Shown piece after piece: positions 15,081-53,662 of a stretch of 64,000 bases of DNA; the stretch's first letter is position 1, and the number at the start of each line of letters is the position of its first letter. Source of the DNA: Octopus vulgaris (Eukaryota); the NCBI GenBank assembly GCA_951406725.2, contig OX597824.1, forward strand, positions 21,266,001 through 21,330,000, given 5' to 3'. The notes under the pieces are model-generated. The model was not told the origin of the DNA, did not search any database, and saw only the letters and a list, made by a program, of their open reading frames with translations. A program made the position numbers and the translations under genes.

Positions 15081-15164
15081 ACATCTACGGGCCATTTCAG
15101 AGATGTGCCTAGGAATATGAGATATTTCATATTACTAATCAAGGCACTACCCTCATCAGGATGT
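15081..15164 (-). ncRNA. Type I hammerhead-ribozyme-like motif (slightly decayed)
   Basis: ACATC-CTGATGA-[GGGTAGTGCCT..AGGCACATCTCT]-GAAA-TGGCCC-GTA-GATGT. Helix I is ACATC/GATGT, core boxes are intact and the cleavage triplet is GUA. Confidence 0.65.
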
Positions 15165-15189
15165 TACACTAAGTTCATAAATACATAAA

Positions 15190-15696
15190 TCTCTCTCTAT
15201 ATAAACGGCAGTTTGTCTGTCTGTGAGGTTGTACCCTCACCCTGACCACGGCTTTCGACCGATTCTGATGAAACTTGACACACACATAGCCCAATGTCAT
15301 AATTCAAAACTAACGCAGCGAAAATTTTGAAAAGTTTCCCCAGTTCTGAAAAAAATTGATAAATTCAACATGGGGTCGAGAATCTAAGCTTTTTATTTGC
15401 AACACATTTTCTGTTGTAGTTTTCGCAACTTGCAATCGATTTTGACCAAACTCATGGTGAAGCTTAATGTTACCCTAAGAAACTTAATTCTGACATTAGT
15501 TTTCCATGCAATACCTTACCATCAGAAAAAATCGATAAAATCATGCCATTTTGGGATATCGCGTTCAAATTCAAGATGACATATTTTCGACAATATCTTT
15601 CACAAATTGGCAGGAATTTAAAAAAAATTCACAGCGAGCATCATGTCTGCTCCAGGGGCTCTTACATACCCGGGCAACGCCGGGCTATGCTGCTAG
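15190..15696 (+). mobile_element. Non-autonomous Helitron H4
   Basis: A|TCTCTCTCTATATAAA..CCCGGGCAACGCCGGG.TATGCTGCTAG|T. Confidence 0.88.
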
Positions 15697-16715
15697 TACA
15701 TTATATACCAGGGTTGGTCCACCATCAGCAGTAAATATGGCTCACAACAAGCACTATATTTTCCTTCTGTATTAATGGGAGTTATTGTTAACAACAAGCT
15801 CTAATTAAACCATATATTTCGTATTTTTATATATTTATATATTTAGAAATTTTTATATTATATTTTGTGTATATGAATGTATGCTATGTATGCTGTGGAG
15901 AATTGCAACGCTTTCAAATATATTCAGTGAATACGAACTCTGACCTTTGAAATTTGCTCTCTCTTCCTTGGTTATATATATCTGTGTGTGTGTGTGTGTG
16001 TGTGTGTGTGTGTGTGTGTGTATATGCATGTTCTTGGGTTTGTTTTGCAAGAATTTTGATGTGAAACCGTATGTTGAAACCAATATTATTATACTTTGAG
16101 AGGGTCATACTGCCAATAAACACACACACATACCTACATCACTCACAATTTCTCTCTATCTCTCTCACACATGCATGCATACACACACACACACACACAC
16201 ACACACAACCTACACACTAACCCCCCTCTCGTATACACACATGCGCACACATTCTTATGTCGGCGCCAACTATAACAAAAGTAAACAAATGAAAATATCA
16301 AAAAGAAAAATACTTAACGAAAACATACAACATGACAACACACGTTTGACACCATGTAAACAGAGAGGTGATAATTCTAACAACATTGCACACAAACCTT
16401 TGGAACCATTTTCTAAGGAATGTCGGAGTCTCTATTTGCTGTTTGGCAATGTTTATTCAGACGTATTTTGTGATGTTGGGTGGGGAAAATACCTTAAGCT
16501 AAGCCTGAAAGCAATGAAGTCATTAAAGAATCATCCATAACTCTGCTCCTGTGGAGTGTATGAGGAAGGGTCTTGTACAGGGCTGGTTACTGTTATTTCT
16601 TTATTTTCTGAAAACAGAATGCACAAAAGTTACACGTTTGCATTATGTTATATATACAATAATAATAAAGGACGTTACCGTATACATTTTTACAAACCTA
16701 GCTGAATGATAACTA

Positions 16716-17237
16716 CTGTAAATCCTCAAGTATAATCCGTATTTTTTTCCAAAAATTTAATGGTCAAAATCCCTAGTGCGTATTATATACGAGGTTAAAA
16801 ATGAAAATTATTTTCTAAGGAATGTCGGAGTCTCTATTTGCTGTTTGGCAATGTTTATTCAGACGTATTTTGTGATGTTGGGTGGGGAAAATACCTTAAG
16901 CTAAGCCTGAAAGCAATGAAGTCATTAAAGAATCATCCATAACTTGCAGTAAGCAACATTTATTAAACGTTATTACTGTTATTACTGTTATTTCTTCATT
17001 TTCTGCAAACAAAATGCACAAAAAAGCTACACGTTTGCATTATGTTATATATACAATAATAATAAAGTACGTTACCATATACAGTTTTACAAACCAAGGA
17101 CGTTATATAGACCTCCTTGACTCAAGTTAGAGTAGGGGTGCGTGTTATACACAAGGTTTAGGTTTTTCAGAGTTACGACCCCCTAAAAATCCCCTGCGTA
17201 TTATACTTAAAGGCGAACTATATTTGAGGATTTACGG
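16716..17237. mobile_element. pogo/Tigger-like MITE with TA TSD
   Basis: TA|CTGTAAATCCTCAAGTATAATCCG ... CGAACTATATTTGAGGATTTACGG|TA, giving ~24-bp imperfect TIRs. Confidence 0.88.
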
Positions 17238-50362: not shown

Positions 50363-51977
50363 ATATATATATATATATATGTGTATGTGTGTGTGTGTAT
50401 GTGTGTGTATATGTATGTATATGTGTGTATATATGTGTATGTACATGTGTGTATGTGTATATGTATATGTGTGTATATGTGTGTCTGTATGTGTCTGTAT
50501 GTGTATGTATGTATGTGTGTATATGTGTGTATGTATGTGTATATGTATGTATATGAGTGTATGTGTGTATATAAGTGTGTATGTATATGTATATATATAT
50601 GTATATGTGTGTGTGTGTGTATATGAATGTATGTGTGTATGTATGTGTATGTACATGTGTGTATGTGTGTGTATATGTATATGTATATGTGTGTATATGT
50701 GTGTCTGTATGTATGTGTATGTATGTATGTGTGTATGTGTGTGTATGTATCTGTATATGTATGTATATATGTATGTATATGTGTGTATGTATGTGTATGT
50801 ACATGTGTATGTATGTGTATATGTATGTATATATATGTGTATGTGTGTGTGTATGCGTGTGTGTATGTGTGTGTATATGTATGTATATGTGTGTATGTAT
50901 GTGTATATGTATATGTGTATGTATGTATACGTGTGTATGTATGTGTATATGTATGTGTATATGTATGTGTGTGTATGTGTGTGTGTGTGTATGTGTATGT
51001 GTGTGTGTGTGTGTGTGTGTGTGTGTGTGTGTGTGTGTGTGTGTGTGTAAAGAATCTAAGACCATGTCCTTTCCATTTTGTTGAAGTGTTCTCATTTGTT
51101 TGCTCATCAGTTTGTAACTCTAACAGATCAGGTGAGAAAACACTTCTGCCAGAATATAATAAGCAAGAAAATGCCAAATTAGTTTCAGTTAAATGGCAAT
51201 ATTTGGAAAGAAGCGTGAGCAGAAGAAGAATTTTAATTTTTACTGCTCCCCTAGCAAGAAGTATTTCTTCCATTATGAGACAAAAATCAGTGTTGTTCAT
51301 AGAATCGACAGTTTCAATAGAAAGACTCCCCAGAAACTGTGCGATAATTGTGAAGATCAGGTGTTTAATTGAGATAACCTGTAGCTTGGCAACCCAGCAG
51401 CAACTATCAACTGTATACATACATAAATACATACATACATACATAAATACATATATACATATATACATACATACATAAATACATACATACACACACAATA
51501 CATACATACATACATACATACATACATACATATATACATACATACATAAATACATACATACACACACAATACATACATACATACATACATACATACGTAC
51601 ACACACATACATACATGCAGACATACATACATAGATACATACATACACATACATACATACATACATACATACATACATACATGTATACATACATACATAC
51701 ACACACAATACATACATGCATAAATACATACATACATACATACATACATACACATACATAGGCACATACACACATACATATATACACACACACATACATA
51801 CATACATACATAGGCACATACACACATATATACACACACACATACATACATACATAGGCACATACACACATACATATATACACACACACATACATACACA
51901 CACACGCACGCACGTGTGCACACACACACACACACACACACACACACACACACACACACACACACACACACATACAT
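50363..51977. repeat. Two long (TG/TATG)n and (CA/CATA)n blocks (50363-51048; 51414-51977) around a 365-bp unique island
   Basis: Direct inspection. Confidence 0.95.
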
Positions 51978-52304
51978 GGAAGACTCAGTGTGAAGGGTAC
52001 TTCAAATTGGTTTTGTATATGAAGAGACAAAAGTTGTTTCTCAATTATTAAATCTGTTATTTCTTTCTTGTTGGTTCGTAAAATAACGCAGCAGCCATGC
52101 AGTTAAAATAATGGTACGCTTCACCTAGTGAAGCTTTTCGGATTTTCGGATTTGCTTTAAAAAGAGAAAGATTATAAAAGCAAAAGTCTCAGAGTATTCT
52201 TGATCCTTATTTGAAATGAGCCAAATGTAATTTTTTTTGGTTAGTACTTGCAGGAAACACAACGACTAGAAAACTTTCAAATTTGGTATTTACGGTCTTT
52301 ATTA

Positions 52305-52663
52305 TGGAGGCACATGGCCGAGTGGTTAGAGTTAGAGCAGCAGACTCATGGTAGAGGGATCGTGGGTTCGAATCTCAGACCAGGCGATGTGTGTGTTTAT
52401 GAGTGATGATATGTTGTCCATATAAGGCCGGCGAGCTGGCAGAAATGTTAGCACGCTGGGCGAAATGCTTAGCAGTATTTCGTCTGCCGCTACGTTCTGA
52501 GTTCAAATTCCGCCGAGGTCGACATTGCCTTTCATCCTTTCAGGGTCAATAAATTAAGTACTAGTTACGCACTGGGGTCGATATAATCAACTTAATACAT
52601 TTGTCTGTCCTTGTTTGACCTCTCTGTGTTTAGCCCCTTGTGGGTAATAAAGAAATAGGTATG
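52305..52663 (+). mobile_element. Family R head (52305-52403) and family M monomer (52426-52663)
   Basis: Homology to other copies. Confidence 0.88.
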
Positions 52664-53115
52664 TTGTTCACGTCCATTGAAGTCACCAGCCACAAAGAAA
52701 AGGTCCCTGTCATTCATCAATGCAGTAGTCTGCAAGAGGGTGTCATAGAATCGGTCCTTCTGTCCATCGGATAGCCCTGGCTGAGGGGCATAGGCCGAGA
52801 TAATGGTTGCTAACCCATGATGGAGCACTAATCTAATCTTAAGTATTCTGTCGCATACTCTGACTACCTCAATTACCTTATCTACCCATTTCTCTGCAAG
52901 AAGTATACCCACATCCCCAACGCCGTCAGTGTTCCCTGCCCAGAAAATCTTGTACCTGTGTTCTTTGCCTGTGAGGAACTTAGCAGAACCTCTTCTCCAC
53001 CTTACTTCTTGGATGCAGCATATATCGACACATCTCTGTTCAAGCATCTCAGCAATCTCACCTGACCTACCTTTCAGTGTGCTGACGTTGAGAGTGCCAA
53101 CGCTGAGGGTGTGAG
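52664..53115 (-). mobile_element. RTE-clade LINE apurinic-like endonuclease fragment
   Basis: Stop-free VGTLNV..DICCIQEVRW..GVGDVGILL..DRIL..IISAYAPQ..KDRFY..VAGDFNG. Confidence 0.92.
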
Positions 53116-53662
53116 GTGCAGACATGACTGTGTGGTATGAAGCTTGCTTCCCAACCACATGGTTCTGGGCTCAGTCTCACCATGTGGCACCTAGGGCAAA
53201 TGTCTTCTACTATAGCTTCAGGCTGACCAAAGCCTTGTGAGTGGATTTGGTAGACGGAAACTGAAAGAAGCCCATTGTATGTATGTATATATATATATAT
53301 ATATATATATATATATATATATTGTTAATCCAAACATGAAAACACAAAGAGAAAACACAACAACGCGAGGACGTGGAACAAATATAGTATTATTGGACGC
53401 TCAGGAAAGAAGGAGGGTTTAACGTTTCGAGTGGAGCTCTTCGTCGGAAACATAGAAGGAAAGATCCAGAGAAGGGAAGATGGAGGAAAAAAAATCGCCA
53501 ACGGTACTTGTCCCTCCACCATTGTTTGACAACTGACATTGGTGTGTTTATGTCCCCATAACTTAGTGGTTTGGCAAAAGAGACTAAAAGAATAAGTACT
53601 AGGTTTCCAAAGAATAAATCTTGGGGTCAGTTTGTTTGACTAAAGGTGGTGCTCCAGCATGG
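53115..53662 (+). mobile_element. Family A SINE split at its (TA)n by a Penelope-like remnant
   Basis: 5' half 53115-53280, 3' half 53508-53662. Confidence 0.85.
53322..53505 (-). mobile_element. Penelope-like remnant with a minimal hammerhead-like motif (53417-53451)
   Basis: GTTT-CCGACGA-A-GAGC-TCC-ACTC-GAAAC-GT-T-AAAC. Confidence 0.65.

Follow-up and report, generated by a model that had tools for sequence, protein, structure and literature searches.

Core variants of minimal type I hammerhead motifs in Penelope-like retrotransposon families of Octopus vulgaris

The closest described systems are the minimal hammerheads of Penelope-like elements (PLEs), for which an extra nucleotide, a palindrome and opposite-strand pairs have been reported (PMC4209133, Cervera & de la Pena 2014). 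The same study records a U3-A8 pair in Schistosoma, with about 1,300 matches, and weak cleavage of minimal PLE hammerheads as dimers. In PAc (Poseidon, Anolis carolinensis) the C3G/G8C double mutant is partly active and cleavage is protein-assisted (PMC11167929, Frangieh et al. 2024), while natural U3-A8 covariation, A6C with low activity and U4C in a viroid are also known (PMC3088659, Perreault et al. 2011). Among PLEs, a CX4CxxC linker is common to the Neptune and Nematis clades (PMC8557442, Craig et al. 2021). Here we describe hammerhead-like motifs of five short repeat families (A to E) in a 64-kb stretch of the Octopus vulgaris genome (contig OX597824.1, positions 21,266,001 to 21,330,000; G000:C11:21266001-21330000), hereafter the window, which belongs to a 2.8-Gb genome, has a GC content of 38% and is rich in microsatellites and short repeats.

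We propose, with a probability of about two in three, that these are minimal type I motifs in PLE pseudo-long terminal repeats (pseudo-LTRs), likely cutting their transcript slowly after position 17 as palindrome-mediated dimers or with the aid of a protein. With the minimal hammerheads of PMC4209133 they share the type I layout, the lack of a stable helix III, a palindromic 15.2-16.2 segment, the extra nucleotide between 9 and 10.1, the G10.1-C11.1 pair, the pseudo-LTR position, inverted pairs and the presence of many families per genome, and the family D box, UUGAAAA, is that of Schistosoma mansoni family 4 (Fig. S3 of that study). Among its 56 representatives, as far as accessible, G3-C8, U6 and C4 are absent and no cephalopod is represented; the descriptors used there fixed those positions. 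As in PAc, the octopus hammerhead lies within the pseudo-LTR, and the G3-C8 pair that was engineered in PAc is native to family E, with intact open reading frames (ORFs); PAc belongs to the Poseidon clade, whereas the octopus ORFs carry a zinc-finger linker. The core variants in PMC3088659 overlap with ours in U3-A8 and U4C, and its accessible text, with Fig. 5 and S6-S7 outside the comparison, does not mention natural G3-C8 or A6U.

Apparently new are the G3-C8 core fixed in family E, whose element is young and intact, and the fixed A6U core of family C; the rest is largely as published. The largest survey of such hammerhead variants is reportedly that of Lunse et al. 2017. The literature searched, which also spanned PMC3884650, PMC8495972, PMC6765202, PMC6155905, PMC2920678 and a 2026 retrozyme preprint, yielded in its accessible parts no natural G3-C8 or A6U core and no report from octopus; Lunse et al. 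2017, Hammann 2012, Przybilski & Hammann 2007, Nelson & Uhlenbeck 2008 and figures lie outside this coverage. A preliminary description of the window, made from its letters, had proposed a radiation of non-canonical minimal hammerheads. The homologous type I motifs in PLE pseudo-LTRs and the covariation of positions 3 and 8 support this in part; U3-A8, the additional nucleotide and a palindrome serving as stem III had already been published.

Core variants and the 3-8 pair

A first look at the genome gave candidate counts, all lower bounds, of at least 141 (A), 2,988 (B), 603 (C), 1,247 (D) and 3,270 (E). The per-family tallies used here come from copies anchored on their 3' flank, and since these include copies picked by similarity to the window, the sample is not unbiased. 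The C3-G8 pair is present in 68 of 69 family B copies (C4 in 35, U4 in 34) and in 55 of 56 family C copies, 54 of which have U6. Family D reads U3-A8 in 74/77 copies, and family E reads G3-C8 in 47/64 and G3-G8 in 11/64. Genome-wide, exact 22-base counts for family E were 5,534 for G3-C8 and 196 for G3-G8, with 0 for the reversed control.

The majorities of B, C, D and E have the minimal type I PLE layout of helix I, box, helix II with G10.1-C11.1, GAAA, palindrome, U16.1 and H17. The palindrome is a 4-nt one (ACGT, AATT) in B, C and D and a 6-nt one (AATATT) in E. An additional purine between A9 and helix II, earlier noticed in the four minimal types, was confirmed in all of them, as A in B and C and as G in D and E; family A has a canonical core with a long helix II, a short helix III and no extra purine. 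Position 17 is U in D (75/77) and in E, and G in 10/69 B and 14/54 C copies. The nucleotides U4, G5, A6 and A9 are kept in A, D, E and canonical B, and broken in C (U6) and in the C4 subfamily of B. Hence the idea that the cores vary by compensatory swaps applies to D (U3-A8) and E (G3-C8), but not to B, which has the canonical CUGACGA when ORF-linked, nor to C, which keeps C3-G8 and departs from the canonical core by a non-compensatory change at position 6. In keeping with the expectation that a strict descriptor would miss such motifs, Rfam covariance models at E-values up to 10 gave no hammerhead family for any of the three copies tested (a young E copy, an A copy and the B copy at 53417). 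An Rfam scan of the whole window gave 302 matches, of which the 150 listed were microsatellite-driven and chiefly to microRNA families.

In an alignment of 14 hand-picked representatives, positions 3 and 8 form a Watson-Crick pair in every row (C-G in 8, U-A in 4 and G-C in 2, the last being two subfamilies of E), and six cells are altered on both sides. Over the whole structure 87.5% of the cells are paired (63.8% after shuffling); the value for the real alignment was reached in 0/500 shuffles and exceeds all slid controls. The pair therefore covaries between families, as the preliminary description had suggested checking. Its statement that the two positions are always complementary holds for the family majorities and the 14 representatives and fails for individual copies, namely the 196 G3-G8 copies of E and a C3-A8 copy at 23931 on the reverse strand. 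Families E and D and a seventh family (G) form one clade (100/100 in a tree of 19 rows, with C left out). The G motif has C3-G8 in three loci, one of which is decayed at A9 and one partial; thus three sister families use three different 3-8 pairs. Furthermore, of 31 metagenome relatives we scored the 15 with an ORF end and a tail of more than 100 bases, leaving positions 3 and 8 unscored. The best match beat all 40 shuffles in seven, and all seven pair at 3-8 (4 C-G, 3 U-A); one of them has A9C and two have just 1-2 bp of helix I.

The young E subfamily (1.6% divergent, 12 copies) differs from the older one (5.3%, 52 copies) at 9 of 135 positions, four of them in loop II and none among the 42 core and helix positions (about 0.03 as calculated by hand, and less telling should the four changes in the loop have arisen together). 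Across contigs from four runs, each of a different organism, every alternative letter stays below 5% at the E box and on helix II's 5' strand, positions with less depth than elsewhere. We infer that selection on source elements maintains the 3-8 pair.

Several further observations concern the families themselves. Copies of the G3-G8 subfamily of E crowd together on C16, from about 0.6-6.7 Mb onwards (24 among the first 100 places listed), and are also scattered over C1-C15. Family F, the sixth, has a canonical minimal hammerhead and occurs at L044:631, L135, L176 and L231 and in the window at 23893-23934, and relatives of B and C with altered helix II or loop (L111:+591, L250:-5773, L072:-2353) represent subfamilies beyond those in the window. 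At a family E locus (L248:5395-5625), A-to-G and T-to-C differences are much commoner in one RNA-like run (X4) than in two large DNA-like runs (about 24% versus 0.05% at position 5533 and 17% versus 0.1% at 5513), with low levels at the GAAA box too; with differing organisms and unmatched DNA, this is a hint of adenosine-to-inosine editing of family E transcripts.

Linkage to Penelope-like elements

Penelope-like retrotransposons encoding a reverse transcriptase (RT), a zinc-finger linker and a GIY-YIG endonuclease have the repeats of families B, C, D and E as their 3' pseudo-LTRs. The protein upstream of one D copy retrieved 30 loci, in which the D repeat lies downstream on the same strand in 25, solely as an inverted upstream copy in three and is absent in two; a 665-aa frame in L183 combines RT, the CX4CxxC linker and GIY-YIG. 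The E motif was found within 1.5 kb downstream in 16 of 30 loci, and in all six loci with a long ORF, each with G3-C8; some motifs lie beyond this limit because the untranslated region (UTR) of the family spans 1-1.4 kb. Four of the 16 loci read G3-G8, the query having come from the G3-G8 subfamily, and L248 has an intact 839-aa frame. In family C, the thumb, linker and GIY-YIG lie 520 nt upstream of the motif in L255. The C-type endonuclease has 17,234 candidates, the most among the families, and of 20 short stretches behind long C frames ten reached the box and all ten read CTGT(T/C)GA (A6U). Family B has a C-like endonuclease upstream in 3 of 25 loci with a long UTR, with U4 boxes; among these 25 loci no ORF could be tied to the C4 subfamily. 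For family A the examination of 30 loci gave inverted 5' junctions in 15 and no ORF link, and it is likely a PLE pseudo-LTR as well. The suggested linkage to RT/GIY-YIG ORFs is thus established for B, C, D and E and was not found for A.

By sequence motifs, RT shares one ORF with a C-terminal GIY-YIG in L183, L248 and L255. Pfam matches were weak and below the cut-off (RVT_1 0.008, GIY_YIG_2 0.013, GIY-YIG 0.0039; none for L248), and the domains were assigned by motifs and by architecture compared with PMC8557442. Like the Neptune/Nematis-type endonuclease-bearing PLEs of that study, the octopus elements have an RT, a CX4CxxC linker and a GIY-YIG with inner cysteines and two histidines after it, as well as (TA)n targets and an inverted 5' pseudo-LTR. 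In contrast to this type as described in the accessible text, with the reference elements themselves outside the comparison, about 110 residues separate motif A from motif B in the RTs of D and E (L183:3517-5511, L248:1922-4438). Their motif B is unusual (GAAIGVGIAGDVA), and relatives are present in marine assemblies. The region of about 110 residues may be an insertion-in-fingers-like region within an element with a C-terminal endonuclease.

Inverted 5'-truncated pseudo-LTRs and microsatellite targets were seen in the window at 37818-38195 and in L188, L189, L249 and L255, besides the 15 loci of family A. Many E copies (listed on C1) and D copies (window 37818-38195) form inverted pairs, joined head to head about 10 nt upstream of helix I; this junction, immediately 5' of the motif, may be a point of stopping or template switching.

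The seventh family (G) has a canonical core behind a P0001-type endonuclease (L190:3233, L253:4367-4536, L270), and the Octopus vulgaris protein P0001 matches L253 at 90%. The endonuclease beside an A copy in L190 belongs to this family, which carries its own motif, and was rejected as that of A. Two A copies 3.8 kb apart in L151 were rejected as element ends, with no PLE ORF between them. Finally, the sequence upstream of C in L192, whose reading frames we take to be Helitron-like, has C behind it in just 1 of 25 loci and was not counted as part of C.

Copies in the window

All seven 7-nt boxes cited in the preliminary description are present in the window, which itself holds no Penelope-like ORF in the 64 kb searched; each motif had been designated by its low end or, for 21853, by that of the box. 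The family A motif, partly decayed (15081..15164, -), has the canonical box CTGATGA at 15159-15153, a long helix II with an AT-rich loop and a short near-palindromic helix III, and lacks the extra purine. It lies in a repeat (14778..15186, -) classed as Penelope-like by the inverted 5' junctions of its family.

Family D is represented by a decayed motif at 19037..19073 (+; TTGAAAA box 19040-19046, U3-A8), with GGAA for GAAA and a helix I mismatch. It belongs to a pseudo-LTR fragment (19036-19164, +) that adjoins an inverted piece of its own tail (18976-19035, -), together 18976..19164. The second D motif (38002..38038, +) has its U3-A8 box, TTGAAAA, at 38005-38011, an extra G, a helix II of 5 bp (C11.1 to U), an AATT palindrome and U17, and lies in a pseudo-LTR at 37992..38195 (+). 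Next to it is an inverted 5' copy with a decayed motif (37818..37961, -; box at 37952), and tail fragments without the motif lie in inverted arrangement at 46170..46313.

The family E motif (21826..21866, -; G3-C8 box GTGAACA, 21859-21853) has, on comparison of L091 with 29 other copies, a 9-nt deletion that takes out most of the GAAA box, the AATATT palindrome and the NUH. Its pseudo-LTR (21685..21919, -) ends in a (TA)n tract. The decayed family F copy (23893..23934, -; box CTGAAAA, 3-8 mismatch) was absent from the earlier list. The first family B motif (30409..30443, +; box CCAATGA from 30413) carries G5A, G10.1A and G12A within a pseudo-LTR with (TA)n at its end (30334..30538, +). Its box, earlier regarded as a real variant, was found in just 2 of 69 B copies and thus reflects decay. 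The second B motif (53417..53451, -) has C3-G8 and U4C in the box CCGACGA (53447-53441), an extra A, an ACGT palindrome and U17, in a pseudo-LTR ending in (TA)n (53326..53507, -). The family C motif (50232..50269, +; box CTGTAGA, 50237-50243) has C3-G8, A6U, a decayed ACGT palindrome and a G at position 17 that disrupts the NUH, and its 5'-truncated pseudo-LTR (50233..50356, +) also ends in (TA)n.

The proposed order of helix I, box, helix II, GAAA, NUH and helix I is consequently valid for the family majorities and not for several single copies, because most window copies are decayed; core lesions in 21853, 30409, 50232 and 19037 agree with the earlier remark on decay. When positions 3, 6, 7 and 8 were unconstrained, a strict descriptor accepted a single copy in the window, the one with its box at 53447, and gave two matches in 20 shuffled windows, neither with a 3-8 pair. 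The window copies appear to be inert insertions decaying neutrally. They are single or inverted, and no tandem array covers any of them. A non-LTR retrozyme made of tandem non-coding hammerhead monomers was ruled out on this ground and by the descent of B to E from ORF-bearing elements. Elsewhere in the window, a short interspersed repeat is present as three 184-bp units in tandem at each of 7446-7998 and 58545-59094, and a 192-aa reading frame at 52592-53170 (-) resembles the endonuclease of a long interspersed nuclear element.

Cleavage and alternative explanations

In the mechanism that we propose, two copies would pair through the palindrome and so build helix III, or else the protein of the element's ORF would chaperone the folding of the motif. 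The element RNA would then be cut slowly after position 17, which would release or trim it from tandem or read-through transcripts. The family D motif and the canonical B motif would probably show measurable cleavage, that of family E would do so with somewhat lower likelihood, and cleavage of the C motif is doubtful, whose A6U core may mark loss or gating of catalysis. The predicted fold of the E monomer has helices I and II (z -3.6). The double-hammerhead form of E is predicted at -28.8 kcal/mol, compared with -30.8 kcal/mol for two monomers, and for one C copy it is within 1.3 kcal/mol of two monomers.

Several results weigh against slow cleavage in these elements. In the remaining six of the 8 cases, drawn from B, D, F, G and young C, two monomers are favoured over the double-hammerhead form by a predicted 6 to 14 kcal/mol, and in no case of the 8 is that form the minimum of the dimer. 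The covariation result is inflated, both by the choice of rows for their hammerhead look and by the non-independence of relatives. For PAc, the accessible text reports no RNA reads ending at the cut site, and insertion in vitro without cleavage (PMC11167929). Moreover, A6U is fixed in family C. Obligatory cleavage is contradicted by a genomic 5'-end test, in which a single copy among 159 incidental ones begins where the cut is predicted, and by the amplification of damaging core states: G3-G8 in the 196 exact copies of E, U4C in the 35 copies that make up the youngest B subfamily (divergence 2.7%) and G17 in 14/36 C copies and 9/34 canonical (U4-type) B copies.

The missing 5'-end footprint, the fixed A6U and the amplified subfamilies also favour the better surviving alternative, in which the fold is retained for a structural role, signalling binding of the element's own protein, packaging or the start of reverse transcription, some or all of the families have lost catalysis or can do without it, and the 3-8 pair persists as a requirement of the fold. 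In line with this, family C is the one with the most endonuclease candidates, its U6 is predicted to let the box pair with the GAAA/palindrome strand, and Naiad PLEs proliferate without hammerheads (PMC8557442). However, G5, the U16.1 region, A9 and GAAA are near-invariant over families with unrelated flanks, the 3-8 pair is a contact within the catalytic conformation (PMC3884650), and U4C and A6C are natural low-activity variants (PMC3088659), so that we consider the structural explanation unlikely. Chance look-alikes or neutral decay products, with 3-8 complementarity as an artefact of picking examples, are very improbable and largely refuted: of the seven window copies cited, four have broken core positions, and all columns are equally conserved within a family, so that copy conservation alone is uninformative on selection, but descriptor matches are rare in shuffles, homologous ORFs of octopus-like relatives and of distant marine ones are followed by the motif at an equivalent position, and both sides of the pair change jointly between families.

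Returning to slowly cleaving PLE motifs, we tentatively raise the possibility that family E is the first natural G3-C8 hammerhead fixed in an active retrotransposon, that the three sister families have settled on three 3-8 pairs, and that family C has given up its catalytic A6 in exchange for a self-locking fold. Together these states would therefore make up a graded series of PLE hammerheads, from ribozyme to protein-gated switch, that standard descriptors have missed.

PLE hammerheads are poor cleavers, with one protein-dependent case, and there are clades without a hammerhead. The octopus genome provides young intact elements with C-G, U-A, G-C, G-G, U4C, A6U and G17 cores, and thereby a natural series bearing on the part of cleavage in transposition. 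A native G3-C8 core, if true, would broaden the natural sequence space of the hammerhead and would mean that searches based on CUGANGA overlook thousands of copies per genome.

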